Of a stretch of DNA of 31,190 bases, positions 1 through 31,190 are shown one piece after another (within the stretch, counting starts at the first letter, position 1; each line of letters begins with the position of its first letter). The notes below the pieces were generated by a model, which had not been told where the DNA came from, searched no databases, and saw only the letters and a program-made list of their open reading frames with translations. Source of the DNA: a virus (Duplodnaviria > Heunggongvirae > Uroviricota > Caudoviricetes); IMG/VR virus record IMGVR_UViG_2681813317_000014; one strand, 5' to 3'. Made by a program: the position numbers and the translations under genes.

Positions 1-219
1 TCACATCCACATAATTTGCTGCCCTGACGGCAACGGGTGCGGCCTTACGGCGTGGACTTCTCCCGGCTTCACGATGTATCTCTGTACCGACTCATAGGTG
101 ATGAACGTGGCGCTGCAATTCACGTTCTGACACTGGTGATAACGCTCTTTTGTCGTGTCAGTGATATAGCGGCTTGTACGCGCATGTGCGGCATGCTGGC
201 ATAAAGGACAATGAAACAT
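1..219 (-). CDS. ogr: Ogr late-gene transcription activator (zinc-finger, 72 aa)
   Basis: ORF 1..282 (-) contains MFHCPLCQHAAHARTSRYITDTTKERYHQCQNVNCSATF..., which I recognise as P2 Ogr with its C-x2-C...C-x4-C zinc finger. Start taken at the internal Met giving the 72-aa product; the longer ORF start at 282 is an alternative. Confidence 0.85.
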   Translation of the reverse strand: MFHCPLCQHAAHARTSRYITDTTKERYHQCQNVNCSATFITYESVQRYIVKPGEVHAVRPHPLPSGQQIMWM

Positions 220-1957: not shown

Positions 1958-4405
1958 TTAACCGTCATGCATCATGCTGGCACGGGCGCGCGCACGTTTA
2001 TCCCGCTCGTATTTTTCGAGCGCATCCTGTAACTGGCGGTCAAACTGTGTCCCCGGCGCAGTACCACCGGTCAGGCTGATGTGATATTCGTTTTTACTCT
2101 GGTCCACATAAGAGCGGCCAGCCGGTGCCGTGACCGGCTGATAAGCCTGATAACCTGCATAAGAGCTGGTCGCCGGAATATAACCACCGGTGCCATACGT
2201 GGCGGCATGAGTCCTTGCGGCGGTCTGGTCAAGTGTGTCTGACTCTTTGTTGATAACCCCGAGTTTTTCCAGTACCCAGTCTATACCGCTGCGCAGTTTG
2301 TTGAACGCATTAAGCGGCAGCATCAGCGCGTCAGCCAGTGCCTGCCCGAACATGACGCCCGTGTCACGGCAACGGTTCAGGGTGTCCTGGGTGGCTTTGA
2401 CCGGGGCAATCAGGTTTTTAAACCACTGCCACGCGGCCTGTAACTTTTCGCCCAGCCAGTCAAACACCGGCTTAAGTGGCGTGAACAGTTCTCCCACCGG
2501 CGCAAATGCCGCTTTCAGCCCTTCCACCACACCGCCAAAGAATGCGCTGACAGGCTCCCAGTATTTACGGATAAGCAACGCCCCGGCGACAATTGCAGCC
2601 ACCACGGCCACAACCGGCCAGCTAATCGCCCCGATGGCCGTCATAACGGCACTACCAACCGTCGTGAAGATTGCCCCCATTGCGCCTGCTGCCGCGATGA
2701 TGGCATTGATGCCGGTGATAACCGGCCAGGCTACGAGGCCAATGGCACCGATGATGCCAGTAAGCGCCAGTGCGCCACCGGCAATGAGACCAATGGTTGA
2801 CGCCAGTGATTTGTTTTTCTGTATCCAGCCGTCGAGTTTTAACACATACTTTGTGACCGTCTGCGTGAGCTTACGCAGCGCGCCTTCCTGCTGGTCAAAC
2901 AGGTCAGTCCCCACCGCCTCATAAGCGGACTGAAACTCCTTAAAGTCACCGCCGAGGTTGTCCTGCATGATATTTACCAGCTCGGCGGTCTTCCCGTCTG
3001 AGGCTTTAAACGCAGCGGTCAGTTTGTCCAGCTTTCCGGTTGAGGCGGCAGTCATCAGCACAGCGGCGGCTGAGCTGGCCTCCTCCCCGAAAATGGTTTT
3101 CATGTATTCAGCCTGCTGGGCAGTACCGAGCCGGTTTTTCTCAAAACTGGCCTGCATTTCTTTCAGAATGGTAAATACTGGTCGGGTATTCCCCTTGCTG
3201 TCTGAGGTTTTCACGCCAAGCTCTTTGAGTGCATCCCATGCTTTTCCCGTCGGTGCCTGCAGGCGACTTAACACGGCACGGCTTCCCGTCCCCGCCATTG
3301 AGCCTGTGATTTTTGCATCATGCAGCGCCCCGACCATTGCGGCGGTTTCTTCAATGCTGACACCGGCATTTTTTGCCACAGGTGCGGCATAGGTCAGCGC
3401 ATCGCTCATGCCGTCAAAATCGGCGGCGGTTTTGTTCATCGTCATGGAGAGAACATCCCCGATATGAGCGACCTTATCGTTTGAAAGCTGAAAGGCGGAT
3501 TTCATCCCCATCAGCAGGGCGGCGTTTTCTTCCATCGTGCGGCGGTTCGCCAGCGCCATATTCAGCGTGACCGGCGTTGCCGCCTGAATGGCATCAACAT
3601 CCCCACCGGCTTTCGCAATGATAATCTGTGCACCGGCTGCATCATCTGCCGAGGCTGCGGTATTGTCGCCGAGCTGGCGCGCCTGCTTGCGGAGTGCGGT
3701 CATTTCGGCGGAGTCTTTTGCCACTCCCAGCACAGCCTGCAATTCTGAGTTTTTCTGCGCAAACTCATAACCGGGCATCAGCAACTTAACTCCGGCCATC
3801 GTTCCCGCCGCCGCAATCCCCACACCGGCAGCGCCCACTGAGGCCATATTTCCGGCCAGTTCCTTTCCGGCCTGATAACGCTGTTTTACTGCGTTAAGTT
3901 TTGCCTGTTGCGCACTGACACGCGCCAGCGCGTCACGCTGACGGTTAAGCTGTGCGGTGGTTTCACTGATACGGTTTTTCAGTCCCTGCTCATCATGTGC
4001 AAGATTGCGGGTATTAATTCCCACAGCGGCCAGTTCCCGCTGCTGGCGTTTAACGGAATCCGTCAGGCGGTTATATTTCGCCTGTAAGTCCTCCGCCGCA
4101 CGCTTTGCGGATTCCAGCACTTTCGCCTGAGCACGGGTCGGACGTTCGGTGTTTTTAAACTGTGTGGCAAGGGCTTCGGCCTCCTGCCGAGCCTTTTCAA
4201 GTGCATGACCAGTCACGGCGAGCTGTGCACTGGTCTTGCGAAATCCCTCAATACGGGATGCCTGACCGTTCAGCTCGCGCAGTGATTTTTGTGTGTCCCG
4301 GATATCCCCCGACAGCGACTTGCTCGCTGTACGGATGGATTTAAACGGGCGGGATGCCTGGTCAACAGCCCTGAGCAATACCTGTAATTTTACATTGTTA
4401 CTCAT
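1958..4405 (-). CDS. T: Tail tape measure protein T
   Basis: 815-aa ORF, alanine-rich and predicted coiled-coil at the N-terminus, with a hydrophobic Gly/Ala-rich central segment. It sits immediately downstream of the E/E' chaperone pair, as in P2. Confidence 0.95.
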   Translation of the reverse strand: MSNNVKLQVLLRAVDQASRPFKSIRTASKSLSGDIRDTQKSLRELNGQASRIEGFRKTSAQLAVTGHALEKARQEAEALATQFKNTERPTRAQAKVLESAKRAAEDLQAKYNRLTDSVKRQQRELAAVGINTRNLAHDEQGLKNRISETTAQLNRQRDALARVSAQQAKLNAVKQRYQAGKELAGNMASVGAAGVGIAAAGTMAGVKLLMPGYEFAQKNSELQAVLGVAKDSAEMTALRKQARQLGDNTAASADDAAGAQIIIAKAGGDVDAIQAATPVTLNMALANRRTMEENAALLMGMKSAFQLSNDKVAHIGDVLSMTMNKTAADFDGMSDALTYAAPVAKNAGVSIEETAAMVGALHDAKITGSMAGTGSRAVLSRLQAPTGKAWDALKELGVKTSDSKGNTRPVFTILKEMQASFEKNRLGTAQQAEYMKTIFGEEASSAAAVLMTAASTGKLDKLTAAFKASDGKTAELVNIMQDNLGGDFKEFQSAYEAVGTDLFDQQEGALRKLTQTVTKYVLKLDGWIQKNKSLASTIGLIAGGALALTGIIGAIGLVAWPVITGINAIIAAAGAMGAIFTTVGSAVMTAIGAISWPVVAVVAAIVAGALLIRKYWEPVSAFFGGVVEGLKAAFAPVGELFTPLKPVFDWLGEKLQAAWQWFKNLIAPVKATQDTLNRCRDTGVMFGQALADALMLPLNAFNKLRSGIDWVLEKLGVINKESDTLDQTAARTHAATYGTGGYIPATSSYAGYQAYQPVTAPAGRSYVDQSKNEYHISLTGGTAPGTQFDRQLQDALEKYERDKRARARASMMHDG

Positions 4406-4825
4406 TCGTGTTTCCGCTTCGCCGGAGCGCCTTTTCGCGCCATGTGATGAGTTCGGTCAGGCTCATGGGATACAGTTCTGATGGCGGCCAGTGAAATATC
4501 ACTGCCACATCCGCCATCAGGTCATCGACCGACAGATTTTTCGGAAACGTCACTGCACCGAGTTCGGCGACAAAAAACCGACCACCTTACCGGCCAGCGC
4601 CACAAGGTCAGGCAGTTCCAGCGCGGCGACTTCCTGCTCGGTCAGCATCGGTGCCGTCATGCGCGGCAGCACCTTAATCAGTGCATCGACTTCGGAGTTC
4701 GCGACCGCAGCCAGACTGACACCGCGCAGCGTCCCGGCATTAGGTTTCATCAGCGTGACCTGTTCGATAACCTGCTCACCACGTTTAACCGGATTGTCCA
4801 GGGTAATGACATTTTCTTTGTTCAT
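4398..4825 (-). CDS. E': Tail assembly chaperone E+E' (programmed -1 frameshift product)
   Basis: Manual translation: after a -1 slip at the heptamer (plus coordinates 4571..4577) the reading frame stays open until a TAA at 4398..4400, overlapping the T start codon (4403..4405) by 8 nt. This reproduces the known P2 E/E' arrangement. Confidence 0.75.
4550..4825 (-). CDS. E: Tail assembly chaperone E
   Basis: 91-aa ORF between FII and T, the conserved position of P2 gpE. It ends ...GFLSPNSVQ and contains the T TTT TTG slippery heptamer near its 3' end. Confidence 0.9.
   Translation of the reverse strand: MNKENVITLDNPVKRGEQVIEQVTLMKPNAGTLRGVSLAAVANSEVDALIKVLPRMTAPMLTEQEVAALELPDLVALAGKVVGFLSPNSVQ
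4571..4577 (-). promoter_or_regulatory. -1 ribosomal frameshift slippery heptamer T TTT TTG (E to E')
   Basis: The coding strand reads GGT TTT TTG TCG in the E frame. X XXY YYZ heptamers of this type are the established frameshift signal in tail chaperone genes (P2 E/E', lambda G/GT). Confidence 0.75.
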
Positions 4826-4881
4826 GGTTTTCTCACTTCTGAATCAGGGTTAACCGGTCAGCCAGGCTGACCGGATGAAAA

Positions 4882-5400
4882 TCACAGGCCGATATTGCGG
4901 CGGTGTTGCTCCAGCCGGTCGACGCCGTTCACCTTCTCAATCATGTTGATGGTGTCGATTTCGACCAGCTCCTTACCGTCCATCGTCAGCCGGAAATAGG
5001 TGCAGACCACGGAGATTTTCGACTCGGTGTCTTCTCCCTGTTTACCCTCGCCGGTGTCGATTTCTTTCTGACGTCCACGCATGACCACCTCGACGGCCAC
5101 CGTTTCGCCGGTATCGTCGCGCTGGTAAGAGCCTGCAAAACGAATCGGTACGGCATCCACACCGGTTGCGGCGTAAAGCTCCCAGATAACCGAATCAGGG
5201 AAGCCACCGAGCGACCACTCCATTGACAGCGCATCGTCATCAAGGCCGAGGTCTACCGGTGCGCTGCCATTCATCCCCGCACCGCGATAGTTTTCGAGCT
5301 TACGGGTCAGTTTTGGCAGCGTGACGGACTTTGCAACGCCCTGATAGCTGTAGCCGTTCAGAAAGACGTTCATTAACTTGAGTTTGCGCGGCATTGCCAT
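4882..5400 (-). CDS. FII: Major tail tube protein FII
   Basis: 172-aa ORF immediately downstream of the sheath gene. Size and order match P2 gpFII. Confidence 0.95.
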   Translation of the reverse strand: MAMPRKLKLMNVFLNGYSYQGVAKSVTLPKLTRKLENYRGAGMNGSAPVDLGLDDDALSMEWSLGGFPDSVIWELYAATGVDAVPIRFAGSYQRDDTGETVAVEVVMRGRQKEIDTGEGKQGEDTESKISVVCTYFRLTMDGKELVEIDTINMIEKVNGVDRLEQHRRNIGL

Positions 5401-5412
5401 CGGTCAGGCTCC

Positions 5413-6603
5413 TTAATTGCTGTTAACCGAGGTGACCAGATTCGCCAGGTATTTATCGGTAATACGCTGGCGCAGGGTCAGGTTTTCGAGAGGAGGCGCC
5501 GGTGTATAGTCGTAGTCGATATACAGTTTTCCGGCCTTGAGGGTTTCCGCATCGTTGGATTCTTCGCTGAACCAGCAGGTCGCATCCACGATATAGCCGT
5601 TTGTTTTCAGCTCACGGAATTTGGCATTGATGCCGTCAACGATGTCACGAATCAGCGTTGCGGTGATGGGCTTGTCCACCGCCCACATGTGCGCCTCAGC
5701 CATCGTGTCGGCCAGCACCTGCGCGGTGCGGGTGTAGTTTTCAAAGAGGAACAGCGGGTCATCAGAGCAGGTACGGTTACCCCAGAAGCGGAAACCGTCG
5801 CGGCGAATCAGCGTAGTGACGCCTGACTCGTTAAGCAGGTCAGCATCGGTGCCGGACTCCTGCAAATCCCAGAAGACGGATGCGCTGATGCCGGTAACAC
5901 CGTTCACCCCGACATTGGACAGCGTTTTATGCCAGCCCTGCTCCTGGTCGATTTTAGCGCGCAGACCCAGCGCACGGGCGGTGGCATACGCGGTGGCGGT
6001 GGTACTGGCGACCGTATCCCATGCGAGGAAATCCGGCCAGATGACCATCAGCTCACGCTGGCTGAAATTCTGGCGGTAGGCTTTCACCTCGGAAATGGTC
6101 TTACATCCCCATGCGCTGATATACCCGAAAGCACGCAGCTTCTGACAGACTGATGCCAGTGCAACAGCCACCTCTTTGGTGTCCAGTCCCGGCACGCCGA
6201 GAATACGCGGTTTAACACCAGTTACCGACTCCGCCGCCAGCAGGGCTTTCAGTCCGGTGTACTGACCGTTTTCGTCGGTGGTGCCGATGATATTGGAAAC
6301 GGTCTGCGCGAGTTTTGTTTCCTCGTCGTCGCCGGTGCCGTCTTCCACACGCACGACAACGGTGACCGGTTTTGACTGGTCAGCGATGGCCTGCAACGAC
6401 GCCGCCAGCGTGCCTTTTTTACCGGCCTTTGCAATTGCGCTTTGCACATTGGTAATCAGCACCGGTTTATTGAGGGGGAAGGTTTCCGCATCCGCATCGC
6501 TGGCCGTGCAGACCATGCCGACAATGGCAGTGGATACGGTGGAAATGACGCGGGTGCCGTCGTTAATCTCCAGCACCTGCACGCCGTGATGATAGTCACT
6601 CAT
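5413..6603 (-). CDS. FI: Major tail sheath protein FI
   Basis: 396-aa ORF, first gene of the FI-FII-E-T-U-D operon. Size, order and sequence resemble P2 gpFI. Confidence 0.95.
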   Translation of the reverse strand: MSDYHHGVQVLEINDGTRVISTVSTAIVGMVCTASDADAETFPLNKPVLITNVQSAIAKAGKKGTLAASLQAIADQSKPVTVVVRVEDGTGDDEETKLAQTVSNIIGTTDENGQYTGLKALLAAESVTGVKPRILGVPGLDTKEVAVALASVCQKLRAFGYISAWGCKTISEVKAYRQNFSQRELMVIWPDFLAWDTVASTTATAYATARALGLRAKIDQEQGWHKTLSNVGVNGVTGISASVFWDLQESGTDADLLNESGVTTLIRRDGFRFWGNRTCSDDPLFLFENYTRTAQVLADTMAEAHMWAVDKPITATLIRDIVDGINAKFRELKTNGYIVDATCWFSEESNDAETLKAGKLYIDYDYTPAPPLENLTLRQRITDKYLANLVTSVNSN

Positions 6604-6662
6604 CCGTTTAACTCCGTGGTTAATGGGTGAGTGGTATTTTCAGTTGTGCCGGAGATGTCAGG

Positions 6663-7262
6663 CTATTTGTCCCGGTTGGCTAAGGGATGACACAATTTAT
6701 TCTTTGTCGCTGATGAGGGGAATTTTTTATAGAGCGTGGACAGGCCAATATCAAAAATCAGCGCCACACGTTGACGAGATTCCCCCGCAGCCAGCAACCG
6801 TCCGACCTGCTCCCACTCACTCGCGGTGAGTTTCGGTCGTCTGCCACCAATACGACCTTTGGCTCTGGCCGCTTCCAGCCCGGCCCGAGTCCGCTCGACA
6901 ATGAGTTCTCGTTCCATTTCAGCCAGGGCACCCATCACATGAAAGAAAAAACGCCCCATCGGCGTGCTGGTATCAATAGCATCTGTCAGGCTGCGAAAAT
7001 TAACGCCGCGTTCGCGCAGTTCCTCAACCAGAATGACCAGATGCCGCATACTACGCCCCAGCCTGTCCAGCTTCCAGACTACCAGAGTGTCACCTGCTGA
7101 TAATGTCCTGAGCAGTTTTTTCAGTCCCGGCCTGTCGGACTTCGTGCCGCTGATTTTGTCCTCAAAAATCAGCTCACATCCTGCGCACTCCAGCGCATTA
7201 CGCTGCAATTCCGTGTTCTGGTCATTTGTTGACACGCGTACATAGCCAATAAGCATGAGCAT
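6663..7262 (-). CDS. Site-specific DNA invertase, serine recombinase (Hin/Gin/Cin/Pin family)
   Basis: N-terminus M-LIGYVRVSTNDQNTELQRNAL with the catalytic Ser in the VRVST motif, and a C-terminal helix-turn-helix. Near-identical in layout to Gin/Pin/Cin. The true start is probably the internal Met at 7256 (MLIGYV...). It lies adjacent to cix-like sites and invertible tail-fibre cassettes. Confidence 0.92.
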   Translation of the reverse strand: MLMLIGYVRVSTNDQNTELQRNALECAGCELIFEDKISGTKSDRPGLKKLLRTLSAGDTLVVWKLDRLGRSMRHLVILVEELRERGVNFRSLTDAIDTSTPMGRFFFHVMGALAEMERELIVERTRAGLEAARAKGRIGGRRPKLTASEWEQVGRLLAAGESRQRVALIFDIGLSTLYKKFPSSATKNKLCHPLANRDK

Positions 7263-7283
7263 CCCCCTGAATAAAAACCGGAG

Positions 7284-7697
7284 ATGATGCCAGTTACCCG
7301 TTATCTCTGCATTTTCATAAACGTTGGTTTGGGAGAAGCGGCAAAACGGAATGTGGGGACAGGGGAAAATCAGATACCGGACATGGCCTCGTTTGCCAGT
7401 GGTGATGGATGGATGAAATTACCCAACGGGAAAATCCTGCAATATGGTCGAGGTGAGGCTATGCCGAAATTATCGACGCAAACAATGAGGATTACATTTC
7501 CTATCCCTTTCCCTAAAAAAGCGGATATCGCCATTCTTACCCATTCTGGCGATGGCGGTGCGCCTTTTGGTGCAGGGCGTGGATTCGTTATGTCCGTAGA
7601 AGGCCCAACATTAACCGGCTTTAATTCTGCTTACAGAACTGCATCAACCAGCGACAAGGTGTCAATGACTTACAGTTGGTGGGCTGTTGGTGAATAA
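7284..7697 (+). CDS. Silent tail-fibre C-terminal cassette C1, copy a (duplicate of H residues about 341-473 with an 18-codon unique leader)
   Basis: The 137-aa ORF is identical from [16 protein letters not shown]... to the end with the C-terminus of the 473-aa H ORF (10363..11784, minus). It is fused to H-type sequence exactly at the cix site. Probably not independently expressed. Confidence 0.5.
7312..7337 (+). other. cix/gix-like 26-bp invertase crossover site 1 (TTTTCATAAACG TT GGTTTGGGAGAA)
   Basis: The right arm is identical to the arms of sites 2 and 3; the left arm is degenerate (about 8 of 12). The central TT dinucleotide and the AAACC-NN-GGTTT core resemble hix/gix/cix sites. It lies between the invertase start and the duplicated C1 cassette. 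Confidence 0.55.
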
Positions 7698-8267
7698 TTT
7701 TATTCAGGATGATTTATATGAACGAATATGTTTATAGCGCAAGGCATAATGCTTTTTTCCCTGTGGATATGATTGATAAATATAAATCAGAGGGATGGGA
7801 TTTATCAGATGCTAAGGAGGTGAGTCAAAATATTATCAGTGAATTTATGGCTGAACCGCCACAAGGAAAAATCCGTATTGCCGGAGGTGATGGGCTGCCC
7901 GCGTGGGCGGATATTCCTGCCCCTACGCATGAAGAACTTATTGAAATTACTGAATCAGAAAGACAGCTACTAATTAATCAGGCCAACGATTATATGAACA
8001 GTAAACAATGGCCTGGTAAAGCGGCTATTGGTCGTCTGAAAGGCGAGGAACTGGCGCAATATAATCTGTGGCTGGATTATCTGGACGCACTGGAACTGGT
8101 CGATACTTCCGGTGCGCCAGATATTAAATGGCCTACGCCTCCGGCAGTTCAGGCCAGATGACATCCGGCGCGGTGCTGGTATCTGTTGCCGTCACCGCGT
8201 CAGTGTAATCCAGCACGGCGTTAAGTCGGGTTGTTTCTGCCTGCGTCAGTTTCCGTCCGGCCTGCAA
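7324..8267. repeat. Inverted duplication arm A (C1 cassette + tfa1 + 3' end of tfa2), partner 9793..10736
   Basis: Reverse-complement identity was checked directly at both ends (7324..7349 against 10711..10736; 8251..8267 against 9793..9809). Encoded proteins are identical throughout. Internal nucleotides were not checked base by base. Confidence 0.8.
7709..8161 (+). CDS. Tail fibre assembly protein, cassette-1 chaperone, duplicate copy a
   Basis: 150-aa ORF identical in protein sequence to ORF 9899..10351 (-). It lies within the 944-bp inverted duplication (coordinates pair as p and 18060 minus p). Confidence 0.7.
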   Translation: MIYMNEYVYSARHNAFFPVDMIDKYKSEGWDLSDAKEVSQNIISEFMAEPPQGKIRIAGGDGLPAWADIPAPTHEELIEITESERQLLINQANDYMNSKQWPGKAAIGRLKGEELAQYNLWLDYLDALELVDTSGAPDIKWPTPPAVQAR

Positions 8268-9325
8268 CCCGTAAATACGTGGATGATGAAGTCCTGGAAT
8301 TAAGGCTGTATGTGGATGAACAGATGAGAAACCACATTGCCGCACAGGATCCTCATACCCAGTATGCACAGAAACATAATCCGACATTTACCGGAGAACC
8401 AAAAGCGCCGACGCCTGATGCAGGAAATAACACCACGCGGATTGCGACCACTGCGTTTGTACAGGCTGCTATTACCGCTCTGATTAACGGTGCGCCAGCC
8501 ACGCTGGACACACTGAAAGAAATTGCCGCAGCCATTAACAATGACCCGAAATTCAGCACCACCATTAACAATGCGCTGGCACTGAAAGCGCCGCTGTCGA
8601 GTCCCGCACTTACCGGAACGCCAACAGCACCTACTGCGGCACAGTCGGTCAACAATACACAGATTGCCACCACGGCTTTTGTGAAATCAGCAATTGCGGC
8701 AATGGTGGGTTCTGCCCCTGCGGCACTGGATACACTGAATGAACTGGCGGCGGCGCTGGGGAATGACCCTAACTTTTCAACAACAGTGCTTAATGCACTG
8801 GCAGGCAAACAACCGCTGGACAATACGCTTACTAATTTGAGTGGAAAGGATGTGGCTGGTCTTCTCGCATACCTTGGTTTGGGAGAAGGCTCTGCATTAC
8901 CTGTTGGTGTCCCTGTTCCGTGGCCTTCAGCTACGCCGCCAACAGGCTGGCTGAAATGCAATGGCGCTGCCTTTGATAAGGTTAAATATCCCCGTCTTGC
9001 TACAGCATATCCATCAGGGAAACTACCTGATCTCCGCGGTGAGTTTATTCGTGGCTGGGATGATGGGCGCGGCATTGATACAGGGCGTGCTTTATTGAGT
9101 ATTCAGAGTGATGAAGTCAGAAAGCTCGCATTAAAATACTGGGGACCAGCTTCAAACAGTTCACCATCAAAAACATTTGCACTCAGCGACAGTGCCGGTG
9201 GCGGGTTGTACACGGATGGAATAAGTCAGGCAAGCGGTGGGATTATCAACGCTTTTCAGCTCCCTGGTGGTAACGAAACCCGCCCACGAAATGTTGCATT
9301 TAACTATATCGTGAGGGCTGCATAA
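8231..9325 (+). CDS. Alternative tail-fibre cassette: 5'-truncated H middle region fused to variable C-terminal receptor-binding domain C2
   Basis: 364-aa ORF. Residues about 12-216 are identical to the H middle region. After the YLGLGE junction (cix site 2) it continues into a different C-terminus (GSALPVGVPVPWPSATPPTGWLKCNGAAFDKVKYPRLA...NVAFNYIVRAA) of the Mu S / P1 S / P2 H tail-fibre tip type. It would fuse to H after inversion between sites 2 and 3. Confidence 0.65.
   Translation: MFLPASVSVRPATRKYVDDEVLELRLYVDEQMRNHIAAQDPHTQYAQKHNPTFTGEPKAPTPDAGNNTTRIATTAFVQAAITALINGAPATLDTLKEIAAAINNDPKFSTTINNALALKAPLSSPALTGTPTAPTAAQSVNNTQIATTAFVKSAIAAMVGSAPAALDTLNELAAALGNDPNFSTTVLNALAGKQPLDNTLTNLSGKDVAGLLAYLGLGEGSALPVGVPVPWPSATPPTGWLKCNGAAFDKVKYPRLATAYPSGKLPDLRGEFIRGWDDGRGIDTGRALLSIQSDEVRKLALKYWGPASNSSPSKTFALSDSAGGGLYTDGISQASGGIINAFQLPGGNETRPRNVAFNYIVRAA
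8268..8887. repeat. Inverted duplication arm M (copy of H middle region, codons about 149-344, ending in cix site 2), partner 10723..11342
   Basis: ORF 8231..9325 shares the segment ATRKYVDDEV...AGLLAYLGLGE with H. Reverse-complement identity was checked at both ends (8268..8291 against 11319..11342; 8860..8887 against 10723..10750), with coordinates pairing as p and 19610 minus p. It abuts arm A with no spacer at 8267/8268. Confidence 0.8.
8862..8887 (+). other. cix/gix-like 26-bp crossover site 2 (TTCTCGCATACC TT GGTTTGGGAGAA)
   Basis: Imperfect 12-bp inverted arms around a 2-bp core, strongly resembling hixL (TTCTTGAAAACC AA GGTTTTTGATAA) from memory. It is the exact reverse complement of site 3 and lies on the codons for LGLGE at the constant/variable junction. 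Confidence 0.6.
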
Positions 9326-9927
9326 TGGATAATGCTGTATTAAATAGCGAGTTTATTGCCACGAAGGCGGGGAATATTACCGTCTATAACTATGATAGTG
9401 AAACACGGGAATATATTTCCACATCAACTGAATATCTTGCTGTGGGGGTCGGTATTCCAGCATGTTCCTGTCTTGATGCACCTGGCATACATAAGGTTGG
9501 TTATGCAATCTGTCGTTCTGTGAATTTAAATTCATGGGAATATGTGCCAGACCATCGCGGTAAAATCGTCTATAGCACAGAAACAGGAGAATCAAAAGAA
9601 ATCACAGCTCCGGGTGATTACCCTGAAAATACAACCACTATCGCCCCTTTATCTCCATACGATAAATGGGATGGTGAGAAATGGGTGACCGATACTGAGG
9701 CACAGCATAGCGCCGCAGTCGAAGCGGCAGAAGCACAGCGCCAGTCACTGATTGATGCTGCTATGGCTTCCATCAGTCTGATTCAACTGAAATTGCAGGC
9801 CGGACGGAAACTGACGCAGGCAGAAACAACCCGACTTAACGCCGTGCTGGATTACACTGACGCGGTGACGGCAACAGATACCAGCACCGCGCCGGATGTC
9901 ATCTGGCCTGAACTGCCGGAGGCGTAG
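9325..9927 (+). CDS. Tail fibre assembly protein, cassette-2 chaperone (Tfa/gpG/Mu U-like)
   Basis: 200-aa ORF directly downstream of the C2 cassette. Its C-terminal tail (LQAGRKLTQAETTRLNAVLDYTDAVTATDTSTAPDVIWPELPEA) is of the tail-fibre chaperone type. Its last 29 nt overlap, on the opposite strand, the 3' end of the convergent tfa1 gene. Confidence 0.8.
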   Translation: MDNAVLNSEFIATKAGNITVYNYDSETREYISTSTEYLAVGVGIPACSCLDAPGIHKVGYAICRSVNLNSWEYVPDHRGKIVYSTETGESKEITAPGDYPENTTTIAPLSPYDKWDGEKWVTDTEAQHSAAVEAAEAQRQSLIDAAMASISLIQLKLQAGRKLTQAETTRLNAVLDYTDAVTATDTSTAPDVIWPELPEA

Positions 9928-10736
9928 GCCATTTAATATCTGGCGCACCGGAAGTATCGACCAGTTCCAGTGCGTCCAGATAATCCAGCCACAGATTATA
10001 TTGCGCCAGTTCCTCGCCTTTCAGACGACCAATAGCCGCTTTACCAGGCCATTGTTTACTGTTCATATAATCGTTGGCCTGATTAATTAGTAGCTGTCTT
10101 TCTGATTCAGTAATTTCAATAAGTTCTTCATGCGTAGGGGCAGGAATATCCGCCCACGCGGGCAGCCCATCACCTCCGGCAATACGGATTTTTCCTTGTG
10201 GCGGTTCAGCCATAAATTCACTGATAATATTTTGACTCACCTCCTTAGCATCTGATAAATCCCATCCCTCTGATTTATATTTATCAATCATATCCACAGG
10301 GAAAAAAGCATTATGCCTTGCGCTATAAACATATTCGTTCATATAAATCATCCTGAATAAAATTATTCACCAACAGCCCACCAACTGTAAGTCATTGACA
10401 CCTTGTCGCTGGTTGATGCAGTTCTGTAAGCAGAATTAAAGCCGGTTAATGTTGGGCCTTCTACGGACATAACGAATCCACGCCCTGCACCAAAAGGCGC
10501 ACCGCCATCGCCAGAATGGGTAAGAATGGCGATATCCGCTTTTTTAGGGAAAGGGATAGGAAATGTAATCCTCATTGTTTGCGTCGATAATTTCGGCATA
10601 GCCTCACCTCGACCATATTGCAGGATTTTCCCGTTGGGTAATTTCATCCATCCATCACCACTGGCAAACGAGGCCATGTCCGGTATCTGATTTTCCCCTG
10701 TCCCCACATTCCGTTTTGCCGCTTCTCCCAAACCAA
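9793..10736. repeat. Inverted duplication arm A' (active copy: 3' end of tfa2, tfa1, C1 part of H)
   Basis: Reverse complement of 7324..8267; see arm A. Confidence 0.8.
9899..10351 (-). CDS. G: Tail fibre assembly protein (gene G equivalent, cassette-1 chaperone, currently linked to H)
   Basis: 150-aa ORF 11 nt downstream of the H stop on the same strand. This is the P2 gene G position. Confidence 0.88.
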   Translation of the reverse strand: MIYMNEYVYSARHNAFFPVDMIDKYKSEGWDLSDAKEVSQNIISEFMAEPPQGKIRIAGGDGLPAWADIPAPTHEELIEITESERQLLINQANDYMNSKQWPGKAAIGRLKGEELAQYNLWLDYLDALELVDTSGAPDIKWPTPPAVQAR

Positions 10737-11784
10737 GGTATGCGAGAAGACCAGCCACATCCTTTCCACTCAAATTAGTAAGCGTATTGTCCAGCGGTTG
10801 TTTGCCTGCCAGTGCATTAAGCACTGTTGTTGAAAAGTTAGGGTCATTCCCCAGCGCCGCCGCCAGTTCATTCAGTGTATCCAGTGCCGCAGGGGCAGAA
10901 CCCACCATTGCCGCAATTGCTGATTTCACAAAAGCCGTGGTGGCAATCTGTGTATTGTTGACCGACTGTGCCGCAGTAGGTGCTGTTGGCGTTCCGGTAA
11001 GTGCGGGACTCGACAGCGGCGCTTTCAGTGCCAGCGCATTGTTAATGGTGGTGCTGAATTTCGGGTCATTGTTAATGGCTGCGGCAATTTCTTTCAGTGT
11101 GTCCAGCGTGGCTGGCGCACCGTTAATCAGAGCGGTAATAGCAGCCTGTACAAACGCAGTGGTCGCAATCCGCGTGGTGTTATTTCCTGCATCAGGCGTC
11201 GGCGCTTTTGGTTCTCCGGTAAATGTCGGATTATGTTTCTGTGCATACTGGGTATGAGGATCCTGTGCGGCAATGTGGTTTCTCATCTGTTCATCCACAT
11301 ACAGCCTTAATTCCAGGACTTCATCATCCACGTATTTACGGGTCGCCAGTACCACCGACGGGTCGATTTTCAGCGTGATGGCTTCGGTATTCGTGACAAC
11401 CAGAATCATGCGGATAGTCTGGGTACGACCACTGCCTTCCTGCAACTGCGGTTTGTACGTTTCCGGGCAGTTCGCCACCGCAATGAGTACGCCTTCATCA
11501 TCATAAAGCCCAATCTCACGGATCCAGAATCCGCCCTCGTTCTCAGGGATGATTTGCTCCGCAATAATCTGGCTCTGGTTGTTCGGGTCAACACTCAGAA
11601 GATTCAGCGGCGCGATGCGTTTCTGGCTAATCAGTTTTGTCTGTGCCGGGTCTGGTGTCGGCAAGACACCATTCGCATCACCAACGGCCATTTGCGTCAG
11701 ATTCAGCTTACTGCCGAGCATCGTCGCGTTAGCCAGCCGTGCTGCGCCCTGATTAGTCAGAATGGCGTAGTATTTCACTGTCAT
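10363..11784 (-). CDS. H: Tail fibre protein H (constant N-terminal and middle part plus variable C-terminal cassette C1)
   Basis: 473-aa ORF with an N-terminus of the P2 H type (MAVGD..., GGFW.RE.GLYDD.G.LIAVAN motif) and the conserved YLGLGE junction followed by the variable C-terminus. Its start overlaps the gene I stop by 4 nt. Confidence 0.9.
   Translation of the reverse strand: MTVKYYAILTNQGAARLANATMLGSKLNLTQMAVGDANGVLPTPDPAQTKLISQKRIAPLNLLSVDPNNQSQIIAEQIIPENEGGFWIREIGLYDDEGVLIAVANCPETYKPQLQEGSGRTQTIRMILVVTNTEAITLKIDPSVVLATRKYVDDEVLELRLYVDEQMRNHIAAQDPHTQYAQKHNPTFTGEPKAPTPDAGNNTTRIATTAFVQAAITALINGAPATLDTLKEIAAAINNDPKFSTTINNALALKAPLSSPALTGTPTAPTAAQSVNNTQIATTAFVKSAIAAMVGSAPAALDTLNELAAALGNDPNFSTTVLNALAGKQPLDNTLTNLSGKDVAGLLAYLGLGEAAKRNVGTGENQIPDMASFASGDGWMKLPNGKILQYGRGEAMPKLSTQTMRITFPIPFPKKADIAILTHSGDGGAPFGAGRGFVMSVEGPTLTGFNSAYRTASTSDKVSMTYSWWAVGE
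10723..10748 (+). other. cix/gix-like 26-bp crossover site 3 (TTCTCCCAAACC AA GGTATGCGAGAA), inside H
   Basis: Exact reverse complement of site 2. It lies in H at the LGLGE codons, in inverted orientation relative to sites 1 and 2. Confidence 0.6.
10723..11342. repeat. Inverted duplication arm M' (H middle region, active copy)
   Basis: Reverse complement of 8268..8887; see arm M. Confidence 0.8.
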
Positions 11785-12392
11785 GCGTTTACTCTCAGGT
11801 TATCAATTAAATGAATGGCCGAGGCCGGGAAATAATCCCCTCCGACAATAATGGCCTCCGGGGTGTAGGGATAAACCGTCAGGGCGTCACCGTGATAGCA
11901 TCCCGCACCGGCAAAAATGTTGCCGGTTGTACTTAAACTGATAGCCAGTCCCGTCAGATGGCGGCTCGCCGGTTTTGCATCAGCAACGAGGCGCTCCAGC
12001 TCCTGATACATTTCCTCGGTAATACCCTGCTCAAGCACGCCAACAACGATGCGGAACGTCCCCGGCTCCTCGTTGAGCTGCCACCACTCCCTCACCTCAA
12101 TCAGATAGCCGAGCGGCTCCACCACACGGCGAATCGCACCAATAGTGCCCTTATGGCAGTGAATGAAATACGCATCGCGGATAACAGCGCGTTTTGTCGC
12201 TTCCGGCCACTTATCATCCCAGCGGTCAACCGAAAATGACCACGCCAGCCACGGCAGCAGATTTGCCGGACAGGTATCCGGGTTCCACAGCTCACGAATA
12301 CTGACCGGCGTTTTTTCAATTTCCGCACAGGCTTTTGCGGCGGCGACTTCAAGTGGTGATGAGCCGGTCGGCAGCAGGCGCGAATCACTCAT
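11781..12392 (-). CDS. I: Baseplate assembly protein I
   Basis: 203-aa ORF between J and H, overlapping both neighbours by a few nt (coupled). Order matches P2 gpI. Confidence 0.9.
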   Translation of the reverse strand: MSDSRLLPTGSSPLEVAAAKACAEIEKTPVSIRELWNPDTCPANLLPWLAWSFSVDRWDDKWPEATKRAVIRDAYFIHCHKGTIGAIRRVVEPLGYLIEVREWWQLNEEPGTFRIVVGVLEQGITEEMYQELERLVADAKPASRHLTGLAISLSTTGNIFAGAGCYHGDALTVYPYTPEAIIVGGDYFPASAIHLIDNLRVNA

Positions 12393-13293
12393 CCGAGCCT
12401 CCGGTCACGACGCGGTACTCAGTACAGAAAGACGCCTGCGTGCTGTTAAGCACGATATCGTCCAGCGGTGCAGCCAGTTCGACACGCTGCACGCCTTCCA
12501 CATGCAAAGCGGCATAAATGGCAGACAGACGGATGTCGCGCCCCAGCCGGTGCTGTGCCGTGATGTACGCTTCCAGTTTTTTCACGGCAGCAGCGCGGAT
12601 GGGTTCGCTTTCGGGACCAGGGTAAAGGTAAAGCGTGGCGTTTATCTGGTATTCAACAATGGCGGCAGACTGCACGGTCACGCGGTCGGCCACCGGCCTG
12701 ACGTCCTCGCCATTAAGGGCGTTACGCACCACGGCCAGCAGGTCTTCGGATGCGACACCGTTATTTTCGCGGGACAGCACGGAGATAGTGACACAGGCCG
12801 GAGACGGACTGGTGACAGAGATATCCGCGACACGCCCGTCGGCACTGCGACCATGATACTGATAGGCTCCCACCGACCCGGCAACGCTTAAACCTTCAAA
12901 CGCCTGCTGAATACGCAGACGATAATCGGTGTCAGATTCCATCACTGCCGGTGTCGGCGGGATGGTCGAATCATCTGCCGGGGTGATAATCAGGCGTGTG
13001 GTGTTGTAATTGGCACCAATCACATCAAGGTCATTACCGGCTGCACAGGCCAGCATCACCGCCCGTGCGGCCTCATTCACACGCTGACGCCAGATAAGCT
13101 CACGATAAGCATTTTCCTCCAGCAGTTTGACGAGAGGTTCGGATTCCAGCGTCAGGGTACGGGCGACCGCGTCCTGCTGGTCTTCCGGGTAAAGGGAAAT
13201 CAGTGTCGCCTTGCGTTCGGCAAGAATGGTTTCAAAGTCCAGCTCCTCGACCACATCCGGTACGGGTAGCTGGTTCAGGTCGATAATCGGCAT
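12385..13293 (-). CDS. J: Baseplate assembly protein J
   Basis: 302-aa ORF in P2 gpJ position and size (baseplate wedge, gp6-like). Confidence 0.93.
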   Translation of the reverse strand: MPIIDLNQLPVPDVVEELDFETILAERKATLISLYPEDQQDAVARTLTLESEPLVKLLEENAYRELIWRQRVNEAARAVMLACAAGNDLDVIGANYNTTRLIITPADDSTIPPTPAVMESDTDYRLRIQQAFEGLSVAGSVGAYQYHGRSADGRVADISVTSPSPACVTISVLSRENNGVASEDLLAVVRNALNGEDVRPVADRVTVQSAAIVEYQINATLYLYPGPESEPIRAAAVKKLEAYITAQHRLGRDIRLSAIYAALHVEGVQRVELAAPLDDIVLNSTQASFCTEYRVVTGGSDE

Positions 13294-23930: not shown

Positions 23931-24533
23931 TTACCCCATTTTAACGAGGTGGCTCATTTTTATAGCTGTCACAGAGTCTTCATAATGAGGCACATCTACA
24001 AGAAGAAGTTCTTCATTCCCGGCAAGAGAAACAATGTGCTTTAACAGTAGAGTTTCAATTCTTGATAAATACTCTGGAACTTTTTTATGAAACCCCAGCG
24101 AGTTTTCCCTAACCCGATATGGGTTCCTTACGTGAATATGTTTTGAGCATTCATCATATAGCTTGATAAACTGTTTTTTCGTCAAAAAACCTCCCGTTAG
24201 TTTCGTCCAGCCCGTTTTGGTTACTCCTGATATTGGTACTGGATAAAAGTTAGGGTTTATCTTTTCCAACTCTTTAAATATATTCTTCGCCTTCCATACA
24301 CCATCAATCTTCTTTGTAACCTTCTCGTATGCTTTTTCATGTGAAATTAGAGATGAAAATGCAATGAGCTCTAGTAGCTTCCTAAGCTGCAACGCCTCCA
24401 TTTCAATTAACACTTGAAAATAAACGCCATCAATCCTTCCAGATGATAAAGCATGAAGTGTTTCAAGTCGCTTTTGACATTCAAACATTATCTTTAGATA
24501 TTTTTGTCTTTTTTTCTCATTCATTAATAACAT
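23931..24533 (-). CDS. Hypothetical protein, AT-rich orphan in the cos-A accessory hotspot (candidate defence/exclusion gene)
   Basis: 200-aa ORF, Lys/Leu/Glu-rich and probably largely alpha-helical. It sits in a markedly AT-rich segment unlike the flanking P2 core, with about 215 bp of AT-rich upstream region. I recognise no family. Confidence 0.6.
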   Translation of the reverse strand: MLLMNEKKRQKYLKIMFECQKRLETLHALSSGRIDGVYFQVLIEMEALQLRKLLELIAFSSLISHEKAYEKVTKKIDGVWKAKNIFKELEKINPNFYPVPISGVTKTGWTKLTGGFLTKKQFIKLYDECSKHIHVRNPYRVRENSLGFHKKVPEYLSRIETLLLKHIVSLAGNEELLLVDVPHYEDSVTAIKMSHLVKMG

Positions 24534-24748
24534 GATCTCATCATCATTCTAACGTCATGCAGAAAGCTATATTAGACACGTCACCCGAATAAAGCTTCAT
24601 TACCTAAAAACAAGACCATACCATCAAACATGAGGGGAGGCGTTGAGTTTTTTGTTTTCTCATTGGTTCCAATACCACTAACGCCTCGCGATGCTCGTTG
24701 TTCAACCCCGCCAGCCCTGAAAACAAGTTTCAAGACTGACGGCGTTTT

Positions 24749-24967
24749 CTATAGTCTGCGTGGCGGTGGAGCAACTCTGGACTGACGGATATAATTAAGC
24801 CGCCCGTAATTATCCCGGACTATTTCGGCACACCCGACCAGCTCGTCAGGCGTCAGATTTTCGTTGACCATAATCTGCTGTAGACAGTGAACAATTGCCA
24901 TCAGCTTGATATTTTTAGTGTTATGTTGCGGTATCTCACCTGGTATTCTGTGCATTATCCAAGCCAC
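24749..24967 (-). CDS. Small hypothetical ORF overlapping the 3' end of the upstream gene
   Basis: 72-aa ORF (or shorter from an internal Met, MAIVHCLQQIM...). Its start overlaps the stop of ORF 24955..25443 by 13 nt. No recognisable motif; coding status uncertain. Confidence 0.3.
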   Translation of the reverse strand: MAWIMHRIPGEIPQHNTKNIKLMAIVHCLQQIMVNENLTPDELVGCAEIVRDNYGRLNYIRQSRVAPPPRRL

Positions 24968-25410
24968 CCGTTTTGCTTTGCACGCTCAATCTGTTCATCT
25001 GAATAGTTCCATGCTCCATCCGTGGCAACCATTGCCCCGCCAGACATCCCCGTCTCTGGTTCATACATAACAGCAAGGCCGAGCTGATGCATAATTTCAT
25101 GATTAATTCTGAATACCAGACCACGCTCACTAAGTTCTTTCCAGTTCACAATCTCATATGCGCCTGTATTAAGCAGCTCAATACTTAGCAAGACATAATC
25201 TTCCAGCCAGTCTGACAGGTCAGTAACATCTGTAATCCGGGCTTCAACCTTTCGCCCCGTATACACACCCTGCCCCCATTCATGCAAAATCAACGTATCC
25301 CCGCGCTCATAATTACGGTCATTTTTCCGAAGCTCTGCGCGTTTCTTTCCTTCCAGCACAAGGTCAAAATATTTTGCGTGCAGCTTTACCTCGTGAATTT
25401 TAGCCATCAT
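24955..25410 (-). CDS. Hypothetical protein with N-terminal ASCH/PUA-like (DUF3850-type) region and C-terminal HExxH motif
   Basis: ORF 24955..25443; start taken at the M-M-AKIHEV Met immediately after the gene A stop. The N-terminal 80 aa (KIHEVKLHAKYFDLVLEGKKRAELRKNDRNYERGDTLILHEW) resemble the small ASCH-like DUF3850 family from memory. The C-terminal part carries HEIMH. Confidence 0.6.
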   Translation of the reverse strand: MMAKIHEVKLHAKYFDLVLEGKKRAELRKNDRNYERGDTLILHEWGQGVYTGRKVEARITDVTDLSDWLEDYVLLSIELLNTGAYEIVNWKELSERGLVFRINHEIMHQLGLAVMYEPETGMSGGAMVATDGAWNYSDEQIERAKQNGWLG

Positions 25411-27692
25411 GTCCACTCCATTACTGTTGAGAATCCCGGCCACTCATCAGCGACCGGATACGTGAATTTTTTCCCGTCATAATTTACGGTTGCCCCACGC
25501 GCCAGCGACTCAAGCTCCCATCGCTGCGGCCTGATGCCGTTCTGAGCAAGGTCAACGCGGATACGGGTAATTTGCATTCTTTCCGACCGGGTCAGTCTGG
25601 CCGATGGTGCAATTTCATGTGGTTTTAACGGGCTTCCGTTTCTCTGCTGACGGTTTGGTGTTCTCAGGTCGTGTTTTAATGCACCTCTGAGTGCCCTCAC
25701 GACCTCCGGGTCACTCCATTCGATGACACCGTCATTAACCAGATTAAGCACTGCTGCGGCGTGCTCAGAAGGTGTGGGAGCCGGTAACGAAGTATCACCA
25801 CCAGTGAGCTTTCCACAGTTATTGACAGGACTCCGAGGCGCGGCGATGCCGCTTTTTAAAGTCAAAGGCTCAACGACCGGAACTTTCGGCACAATGCGCC
25901 AGTCCGTCGTTCTGGTGATATGAATATGACGCGCGCCGAGATGCGGCGCGTAAATGCCGACCACTCTCTCGACTTCTTCCTCGTACTCGTTAACGTCATC
26001 CGACGGACTACGGGCGACCCTGACAGTCTGACAATCGCGCGGGACATTTGCCCCGCCCTGCGCGCTGATATACAGCGCAAAATCACCACTGTCTGCGGCG
26101 GCGCGTGCAGCCTCGACGCGCTCGTCAAACTCATCAGCAATGCTGACGCCGCGAGGCAATTTGCGTAGTTCACGGTAAGCCCCCATTGTCGGCAGGCCAA
26201 CCGTTTTAAATTGCGGAATGCGCCACGTTGACGCCCATGCGGTAACAGCCGCTGCAGTGTCTTTCAGCGGCCTGCCGGTGTCGTTATCGAGCTGACCATC
26301 CAGTGCATAGCCGTCGATGTTTTTTGAAATGTATTTCGCGATATATCCCGCAGCACCGCCCCGGTTAAGGTGCTTTGCCTGAAAACGGTTTCGCGCGGCT
26401 CCTCTTTCGTCACCATCCTCTTTGAGCGCATAGCGACGCATGATTTCGATAATCTGGTTACGCTGGCGTGGATTACAAAAAAGCATCATATGCCAGTGCG
26501 GCGTTCCGTCATGGTGTGGCTCGACGACTCGCAAACCGTAGACCTGTAAATCATTATCCTTGAATGCCGTGCGCATCAGGCTCCAGATACGGCAGAGATA
26601 ACGCTGCGCATCCTTTGGATTAAATGCCTCATCGTTCCAGCCGTGATTTAGCTGGACGGTTTTACTTTCGCCTTTTCCGACCTGACGTGTCGGGTGATAC
26701 TTTGACGGCGCGGTCAGCGTGATAAACATCCCCACATCACCCTCTGCGGCGGCGTAACGCTCAATACCAGCAATGGTGTTCATCAGCTCCATCCGGCGAA
26801 TTTCAGGATTAGAAATACTGCCCATCACCTTACTGATAAGGTCGATGCGCTCGCCGGTTTCCCTGTTTTCAAGGTCACACGATTTAAGAAATTCCAGATT
26901 TGCCTGGCGACGTGCACGCACATCACGAATGGCATGTTTACTGGCATAAGGAGAACGGTCTTTATTGACCTCCCCGACAGCAATCAGTAACGCCTCATGC
27001 CAGCGCATACGCTGGCCTTTAAGCTGATGAGTCCACCACTCATCGTTAAACAGGCGGGCAATGGCAGAATATGCCTGCCTCGTGGTCATCTGTCCTTTAC
27101 GGTATTTTTTCCAGTAAAGCGGGGAAATATTGAAAGCACGCGCAGCGCCAGCAACATGACCATACAGATGCGCCTGCGCCTCATCCGTAAACAGCGATTC
27201 TTTTTCGCCATGCGCATCCACCCAGGCATCGCAGAGTTCCCCATACATCATGAAAAGCTGCGATGAGATACGGGCGGCAAACTTTTTCAGCTCCTTGTCA
27301 TTCATCCCCGGCAGACGCGCATAATGGTCACGCTCTGCCAGAAACAGCAACGACGCGTCGGTGTTCATTTCATGGCGCTGATTCACACGCTCAATGCGCG
27401 GCCATAAACGACGCTGAAAAGTGGATGTGAGGAAATAAAACCCGTGTACCGGGCTTTTATTGCGCCGGATGTAGTCATAGCGTGAAGTAAACAGCGAGCG
27501 CAAAAAGTAAGGCAGGCGGTTAATCGTGGATAAAACACCTTGCACCTGACGCATCTCGTCACGTGTAAGGGGTCTTTCGCGCCCGACAGCCTCGCGTGGT
27601 GCGTTCCATGCATAAGCACCGGTAAACGCCTTACCGGTGCCTGCGGCAAATGCTGACGGAGGGACAAAACGCCCGGAGGCTTTAACGGCCAT
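25407..27692 (-). CDS. A: Replication initiation protein A (rolling-circle nicking endonuclease)
   Basis: ORF 25407..27734. Start taken at MAVKASGRFVPPSAF..., giving 761 aa as in P2 gpA, to which the sequence looks near-identical from memory. This start reduces the overlap with the upstream ORF to 11 nt. Confidence 0.93.
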   Translation of the reverse strand: MAVKASGRFVPPSAFAAGTGKAFTGAYAWNAPREAVGRERPLTRDEMRQVQGVLSTINRLPYFLRSLFTSRYDYIRRNKSPVHGFYFLTSTFQRRLWPRIERVNQRHEMNTDASLLFLAERDHYARLPGMNDKELKKFAARISSQLFMMYGELCDAWVDAHGEKESLFTDEAQAHLYGHVAGAARAFNISPLYWKKYRKGQMTTRQAYSAIARLFNDEWWTHQLKGQRMRWHEALLIAVGEVNKDRSPYASKHAIRDVRARRQANLEFLKSCDLENRETGERIDLISKVMGSISNPEIRRMELMNTIAGIERYAAAEGDVGMFITLTAPSKYHPTRQVGKGESKTVQLNHGWNDEAFNPKDAQRYLCRIWSLMRTAFKDNDLQVYGLRVVEPHHDGTPHWHMMLFCNPRQRNQIIEIMRRYALKEDGDERGAARNRFQAKHLNRGGAAGYIAKYISKNIDGYALDGQLDNDTGRPLKDTAAAVTAWASTWRIPQFKTVGLPTMGAYRELRKLPRGVSIADEFDERVEAARAAADSGDFALYISAQGGANVPRDCQTVRVARSPSDDVNEYEEEVERVVGIYAPHLGARHIHITRTTDWRIVPKVPVVEPLTLKSGIAAPRSPVNNCGKLTGGDTSLPAPTPSEHAAAVLNLVNDGVIEWSDPEVVRALRGALKHDLRTPNRQQRNGSPLKPHEIAPSARLTRSERMQITRIRVDLAQNGIRPQRWELESLARGATVNYDGKKFTYPVADEWPGFSTVMEWT

Positions 27693-30209: not shown

Positions 30210-31190
30210 ATGGCAATTAAGAAGCTCGATGATGGTCGCTATGAAGTGGACATTAGACCTCGCGGTCGCGACGGAAAACGCATCCGCAGGAAATTCGAAA
30301 GAAAAGCTGAAGCACTAGCATTTGAGCGATACACAATCGCCAATGCCAGTCAGAAAGAATGGGGAGGCCAGCGAGCAGACCGCCGAACTTTGAGTGAGTT
30401 GCTGGACATCTGGTGGAAATATCACGGGCAAAACCACGAGCATGGAACAAAAGAGTTTAATCATCTACTCAAAACCATCAGCGGCATAGGTGATATACCA
30501 GTGAGCCGGATGAGCAAAAGGGCTTTGATGGATTATCGTTCCATGCGACTACGTGATGGTATCAGTGCCGCAACGATAAACCGTGACATGTACCGATTAT
30601 CCGGCATGTTCACAAAATTAATTCAATTGGATGAATTTTCCGGGCAACACCCAATTCACGGACTGCCGCCACTGGCGGAGGCCAACCCTGAAATGACGTT
30701 CCTGGAAAAAGCAGAAATCGAAAAACTGTTAAATGTTTTGGCTGGTGATGACTTACTTGTCGCGCTTTTATGTCTGAGCACTGGAGGAAGATGGACGGAA
30801 GTTGCCACGCTAAAACCAGCACAAATTACAAATTGCAGGGTTACCTTCCTGAAAACCAAAAACGGTAAAAAGCGAACCGTGCCGATTTCTGAGGAACTGG
30901 AGAAAAAAGTTAAAGAGGAGGCCAGCGCCAAATTATTCAAAGTTGATTATGAGAAATTTTGCGGGATTTTACGCAGAGTGAAACCTGATATACCACCCAA
31001 TCAGGCAACCCACATCCTGCGGCATACATTCGCAAGCCATTTCATGATGAATGGGGGCAATATAATCGCACTGCAACAAATTCTGGGACATGCGAGCATT
31101 CAGCAGACGATGGCCTATGCGCACCTTGCGCCTGACTACCTGCAAAATGCCGTCGCGCTGAATCCACTAAAAGGCGGAGTGACGTTATAA
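30210..31190 (+). CDS. int: Tyrosine integrase (P2 Int family)
   Basis: ORF 30180..31190. Start taken at MAIKKLDDGRYEVDIRP... with a GGAGGG ribosome-binding site 8 nt upstream. It has the conserved R...HxxR...Y catalytic region (HILRHTFASHF, LGHASIQQTMAYAH). The stop coincides with the window end. Confidence 0.9.
   Translation: MAIKKLDDGRYEVDIRPRGRDGKRIRRKFERKAEALAFERYTIANASQKEWGGQRADRRTLSELLDIWWKYHGQNHEHGTKEFNHLLKTISGIGDIPVSRMSKRALMDYRSMRLRDGISAATINRDMYRLSGMFTKLIQLDEFSGQHPIHGLPPLAEANPEMTFLEKAEIEKLLNVLAGDDLLVALLCLSTGGRWTEVATLKPAQITNCRVTFLKTKNGKKRTVPISEELEKKVKEEASAKLFKVDYEKFCGILRRVKPDIPPNQATHILRHTFASHFMMNGGNIIALQQILGHASIQQTMAYAHLAPDYLQNAVALNPLKGGVTL

Follow-up and report, generated by a model that had tools for sequence, protein, structure and literature searches.

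A permuted inverted duplication in the tail-fibre locus of a P2-like prophage is very probably a scaffold artefact over an ordinary two-site DNA switch

The window, which is the whole stretch of 31,190 nucleotides analysed here, appears to carry an extra, rearranged copy of part of a tail-fibre locus. From the sequences compared, we regard it as very probable that this copy is an artefact of scaffolding and gap extension, and that the real locus is an ordinary two-site tail-fibre switch. The letters are real in the window, but the structure that the repeats suggest is not a real feature. As predicted from its sequence, the locus is a switch of the Gin/Cin/Hin/Pin class by which a P2-like prophage exchanges its tail-fibre C-termini together with the matching chaperones, a kind that is already known. 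The real order would be invertase, left site, the segment with its two cassettes (C2-tfa2 / tfa1-C1) and the right site in gene H. The Gin/Cin-type serine invertase would invert this 1.86-kb segment, giving an H protein that ends in C1 (with tfa1) or in C2 (with tfa2). The features of the locus, as they stand in the window, are the following.

6663-7256, minus strand: serine DNA invertase of the Gin/Cin/Hin type, 197 aa in the source record; real
7312-7337, plus strand: site 1, the left crossover site, TTTTCATAAACG-TT-GGTTTGGGAGAA
7338-8266, plus strand: redundant copy of C1-tfa1 and of the tfa2 3' end (944/944 repeat; Pfam Gp53-like_C and Caudo_TAP)
8267, no strand: scaffold gap, N in the source record and A in the window
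8268-8861, plus strand: redundant copy of the middle of gene H (codons ~148-346), in the opposite orientation
8862-8887, plus strand: site 2, TTCTCGCATACC-TT-GGTTTGGGAGAA
8888-9325, plus strand: C2, the alternative tail-fibre C-terminus with a tail collar domain (Pfam Collar, 3.4e-14); real
9325-9927, plus strand: tfa2, putative assembly chaperone paired with C2 (Pfam Caudo_TAP, 8.7e-33); real
9899-10351, minus strand: tfa1, putative assembly chaperone paired with C1 (Pfam Caudo_TAP, 3.8e-30); real
10363-11784, minus strand: tail-fibre gene H, 473 aa, fused to C1 (orientation A); real
10723-10748, plus strand: site 3, the right crossover site, within gene H, TTCTCCCAAACC-AA-GGTATGCGAGAA; real

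A repeat search clearly showed two inverted pairs in the window, 7312-8267 with 9793-10748 and 8264-8888 with 10722-11346. Compared base by base, 7324-8267 is the reverse complement of 9793-10736 at 944 of 944 positions. The second stretch, 8268-8888 (621 bp, or 622 with 8267), is the exact reverse complement of 10722-11342/3. Base 8267 itself is compatible with the partner of either repeat pair. Repeats of these lengths are far beyond chance. The first-pass annotation had reported inverted repeats at 7324-8267 / 9793-10736 and at 8268-8887 / 10723-11342, and both are indeed exact. It had also described the anatomy correctly, that is, the sites, the C1/tfa1 and C2/tfa2 cassettes, the copy of the H middle and the order of the cassettes.

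The invertase has the Pfam domains Resolvase (2.8e-52) and HTH_7 (5.6e-13). Its residues 1-182 match the structures of phage Mu Gin (3UJ3/4M6F, E 1e-93), with which the N-terminal MLIGYVRVS motif is aligned. The H protein carries the P2-type Phage_tail_fib N-terminal domain (Pfam, 9.6e-62) and ends in a gp53-like part (Gp53-like_C), which is C1. C2 is collinear with the related prophage of E. coli O157:H7 FRIK944 and is silent in the orientation shown at the right of the locus. The genes tfa1 and tfa2 are convergent, with a 29-bp tail-to-tail overlap at 9899-9927. Around the tfa2 3' end, about 148 bases match tfa of the lambdoid phage HK106 at 96.6% identity, and this 3' module occurs across phage types, HK106 being one example.

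All three sites are 26 bp long and have the architecture of invertase crossover sites. The sites at 7312-7337 and 10723-10748 are inverted, have TT and AA as their cores and have the inner half-site GGTTTGGGAGAA in common. The hix sites are 26 bp long (PMC3798978). As written, site 1 is the junction of the invertase flank with C1, i.e. orientation B. It is a real site, and it is also found in FRIK944. Site 2 and its 594 bp of H flank match site 3 and its flank exactly in reverse complement; the two sites are consistent with being one physical site, with site 2 showing orientation B. The core dinucleotides TT, TT and AA at sites 1, 2 and 3 permit inversions between sites 1 and 3 and between sites 2 and 3.

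The source record was reached through an exact protein look-up. The 333-aa product that starts at 8324 is CTU13895.1 and the 473-aa H is CTU13921.1 (NCBI); both lie on contig CYBS01000015.1 (122,730 bp) of the draft assembly GCA_001283685.1, which served as the comparison record. Over 19,325 compared bases, the window and this contig differ at a single one, window position 8267, an N in the record and an A in the window (position 9944 of the fetched stretch; about 32,725 on CYBS01000015.1). It is the sole N within 21 kb of the fetched record. By chance, a lone N would hit the junction base about once in 20,000. Since the record has N at this base, the abutment of 8267 and 8268 is a gap marker and not a sequenced junction. 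The window is without any non-ACGT letter, so gap markers may have been swapped for bases in its text. Of the open reading frames that run through the join, one (84 aa) is on the minus strand and three (364, 348 and 337 aa) are on the plus strand. A collection of 15 billion proteins contains none of them, only the 333-aa version whose start lies downstream of 8267. No publication on the assembly method was found under the WGS prefix CYBS01.

We compared the window with the two orientations of a simple locus. State A was the window minus 7339-8888 (1,550 bp), and state B was the same sequence with the segment inverted at the site cores. With k set to 31, 61, 101 and 151, the only k-mers of window 6000-12500 that are absent from both states are those across 8267. 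Three of the four junctions are present in the scaffold: C1/H of state A, and flank/C1 and C2/H of state B, the last of these on the minus strand at 8854. The flank/C2 junction is missing from it. Given molecules with two sites, three of four junctions in one scaffold implies that both orientations were among the reads. The stretch 7338-8266 corresponds to the invertible segment in orientation B, entered from the left flank, and the same DNA is repeated at 9794-10722. All of its k-mers are explained by state B. It includes the C1 ORF (7284-7697), tfa1 (7709-8161) and, in antisense, the final 134 nt of tfa2 (8133-8266). The stretch 8268-8861 is the exact reverse complement of 10749-11342, and corresponds to the H side of a molecule in orientation B that is read in reverse. 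Between the two copies identity is 100%, and each departs from FRIK944 at identical positions, as expected if one DNA was read twice.

The first-pass annotation had offered, as its alternative, an artefact of assembling a population with mixed orientations. This is the part of its interpretation that is upheld, by the N at the join and by k-mers that fit two orientations. The join at 8267/8268, which it took to be precise and free of any spacer, is occupied by N in CYBS01000015.1. Its proposal of a real circularly permuted duplication, made through a circular or unequal recombination intermediate at the cix sites, loses with that unsequenced join its sole evidence. The same N-borne join underlies both the silent inversions between sites 1 and 3 and the P1-like 0.6-kb repeat that it had described.

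In the explanation that we prefer, an artefact over a mixed-orientation switch, the sequenced culture would have held both orientations and the draft assembly would have strung them into one scaffold of two pieces. The piece to the left of 8267 would run from the invertase flank into the segment in orientation B. The piece to the right would begin with the H side of orientation B, backwards, and would then pass through the segment in orientation A and into H. A single N would serve as gap marker because the two pieces never overlapped, and in such a scaffold the 1,550 bp at 7339-8888 would be no extra DNA. An assembler or gap filler that meets an invertible segment in a mixed culture may be expected to make this kind of walk. 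For GCA_001283685.1, both the program that produced it and the inward extension of the two gap edges without closure are presumed. Gap fillers grow the sequence inward from either edge of a gap and make a join only where the extensions overlap, and for IMAGE, assemblies inflated by edge extension have been reported (PMC3446322). In clonal E. coli cultures, the invertible tail-fibre loci of P2-like prophages occur in coexisting orientations (PMC4272514). Against an artefact, the scaffolder did place the two pieces side by side, and the record would look no different if a true duplication contained a tiny unresolved gap. Leftover terminal overlap of a circularised assembly was also considered and was rejected; it would give direct and not inverted copies, and it is unnecessary given the N.

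The relatives of the prophage carry a simple locus. In the ten closest complete genomes, at 98.8-99.8% identity, 71% of 6600-11850 is covered and the locus is about 3.7 kb long. The first-pass annotation had pointed to related prophages as a comparison, and the extra copy is absent from them. The window minus 7339-8888 is collinear with FRIK944 without a gap, at 99.78% identity, and the order of the FRIK944 annotation is invertase, C2, tfa2, tfa1, C1, H. A metagenome contig from ENA has the simple locus at 99.6-99.8% identity and an identical H protein. The same locus is present, flipped, in the phage record KC618326. The segment is thus seen both ways, as state A in FRIK944 and the ENA contig and as state B in KC618326. 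With a coverage of at least 80%, 6600-11850 finds no place in 5,426 complete E. coli genomes or in any phage record. A 301-bp query over the join, at the same coverage of at least 80%, has no match in the 5,426 complete E. coli genomes and 50,697 phage records. A 30-mer over the join has no exact match in the GTDB species representatives, IMG/VR or the JGI metagenomes.

Some of these relatives have features of their own. In the FRIK944 record, H (excerpt 3714-5135) is annotated as a gp53-like protein and, separated from it by about 620 bases without annotation, an 'incomplete' pseudogene. The FRIK944 H locus aligns without gaps to the intact 473-aa H of the window, with 8 mismatches, and the split annotation is probably due to a point mutation or is an annotation effect. 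KC618326, which represents a P2-like prophage of E. coli O157:H43 T22, has a 16-bp insert, GGTCTTCTCGCATACC, in its left site (excerpt 1705-1751). The insert consists of the H-side half-site plus 4 nt, placed directly after the outer half-site TTTTCATAAACG, and together with the right site it forms an inverted repeat that is perfect over 31 bp. Gene conversion, or a previous rearrangement between the two sites, could have left it as a footprint. Longer loci of relatives, such as that of 19KM1831 (4.3 kb), were examined as carriers of a copy of the H middle beside the invertase and were set aside, the extra DNA being unrelated. In 19KM1831 (NZ_CP151026.1), about 640 bp of AT-rich unrelated DNA (excerpt ~1667-2307) lies between the invertase and the left site. 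It contains a hypothetical ORF of 105 aa (excerpt 1855-2172) without similarity to gene H.

A real variant, private to this isolate, was weighed against the artefact. Here a tandem duplication of 1,550 bp (unit 9793-11342, comprising the tfa2 3' end, tfa1, C1, the site and the H middle) would have arisen by illegitimate recombination and brought in a third site. Two inversions by the invertase would have followed. State A would be duplicated, sites 1 and 3 would recombine and then sites 2 and 3, and the direct copies would become inverted. The N at 8267 would then mark one base that was not called, or a gap of minimal length. When this history was simulated, it gave the 31,190-bp window with zero differences, and the site cores TT, TT and AA allow both inversions. 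P2-like prophage systems with three sites and four coexisting isomers are known (PMC4272514). However, proof would have to come from the join alone, which is N in the record, and the join is in none of the five collections searched. The nearest relatives all have the simple locus, the copies are 100% identical, and no k-mer goes beyond those of the two-orientation model. We consider such a duplication, though coherent, unsupported and improbable. If it were true, the event would be very recent and would lie across the right-hand crossover site of the switch of an E. coli isolate. By our own enumeration, there would be four interconvertible isomers, three of which express C1 and one C2. Both repeat pairs are inverted in the isomer shown, so homologous recombination would be unable to delete the duplication.

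A circular origin, in which a 1.55-kb circular intermediate or an unequal exchange at cix-type sites leads to re-insertion at the left site, has a formal basis. The silent copy equals the active copy circularly permuted and opened at the crossover site. Its join, however, lacks sequence, as it does for the tandem duplication. The join at 8267 also lies off any crossover site, so an event that is not site-specific would be required regardless. In addition, the enhancer-dependent invertases of the Hin/Gin/Cin family strongly disfavour fusion and deletion reactions, which we counted against this origin. It is less parsimonious than the tandem duplication with inversions, which is already sufficient. 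Because that history reproduces the window, a circular intermediate would be needless even if the structure were real. We give this origin hardly any credence.

The two pieces might also come from two P2-like prophages or tail-fibre loci of one genome that were wrongly scaffolded together. Several matching tail-fibre loci in one E. coli genome are common (median 2 and maximum 14 matching places per genome), and tfa 3' ends are common to lambdoid phages such as HK106. However, the copies are 100% identical over 944 + 621 bp, whereas the closest other genomes differ by 0.1-0.3%, and a single locus in two orientations accounts for everything. A mixture of two loci is thus very unlikely.

Taken as a two-site switch, the locus compares well with known systems. 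It has an invertase with Resolvase and HTH domains, two inverted 26-bp sites (12-bp half-sites and a 2-bp core) and both orientations. The known enhancer-dependent systems also have a Fis-bound recombinational enhancer, which is usually located in the 5' part of the invertase gene. The loci of P2-like E. coli prophages (Goldberg et al. 2014, PMC4272514), KC618326, pro483 and FRIK944 lie in the same place, between H and the tail sheath gene. They also share the adjacent serine invertase, C-termini that each have a tfa gene, and coexisting orientations. Between them and the simple form of the window, nothing real appears to differ; the extra 1,550 bp would be in the scaffold only. The G segment of phage Mu with Gin is similar in its invertase and in its two inverted 26-bp sites, one of which is within the tail-fibre gene. 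Switching here would be Mu-like, between cassettes of the Sv-U and Sv'-U' type. Mu differs from this prophage in the backbone, which is P2-like in the window, and in the sequences of the cassettes.

The 0.6-kb repeats of phage P1 are located inward of the cix sites and code for the initial part that Sv and Sv' have in common. The apparent 0.62-kb repeat of the window is similar in size, but it is most probably artefactual. Even at face value, the copies of the H middle lie outside the unit between sites 2 and 3, and the likeness to P1 is loose. The C segment of P1, with its cix/Cin/Sv-U layout, is the same kind of switch (bioRxiv 10.1101/2022.07.24.501295).

Multi-site systems were compared as well, namely the three-repeat shufflon of EPEC and Min of p15B. 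A true three-site inversion system is found in an EPEC P2-like prophage (PMC4272514). At face value the window resembles it, with three sites and four isomers. Real shufflons have a distinct cassette for each site and make more protein variants, whereas the third cassette of the window is an identical copy. Where a shufflon has at least three sites on one sequenced molecule, an N separates sites 1 and 2 here. Where it has a distinct extra cassette, the extra cassette here is identical to C1-tfa1 at 944 of 944 positions. A segmental duplication is marked by a sequenced novel junction; the junction base here is N, without a match in the five collections.

Because the scaffold shows both orientations in the culture, the tail-fibre switch is probably active in that isolate. 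The case also calls for caution, as phase-variable segments in mixed orientation can give rise to spurious inverted duplications in draft assemblies. Once a base stands in for the one-letter gap marker, such a structure resembles an exact and biologically suggestive junction. Other findings of exact junctions could suffer from the same replacement of N by a base in the window text.

Outside the tail-fibre locus, the window consists of P2-like prophage sequence that extends from ogr to the integrase gene. The first three bases of the window (1-3) are the ogr stop codon and the last three (31188-31190) that of the integrase, which indicates that the prophage was cut along gene boundaries. In CYBS01000015.1, genes for a phosphofructokinase and for cation efflux lie next to ogr (first 1900 bases fetched). 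The related prophage of FRIK944 lies between yegQ and yegR, and its integrase region is different. P2-like phages often carry defence genes between the portal and the replication gene. In the window, this position is occupied by a variable region at 23931-25443 (minus strand), where FRIK944 instead has a reverse-transcriptase gene. A 200-aa ORF at 23931-24533 (minus strand) has no match in Pfam or PADLOC. At 24955-25443 (minus strand) lies a 162-aa ASCH/DUF3850/DUF7415 protein.
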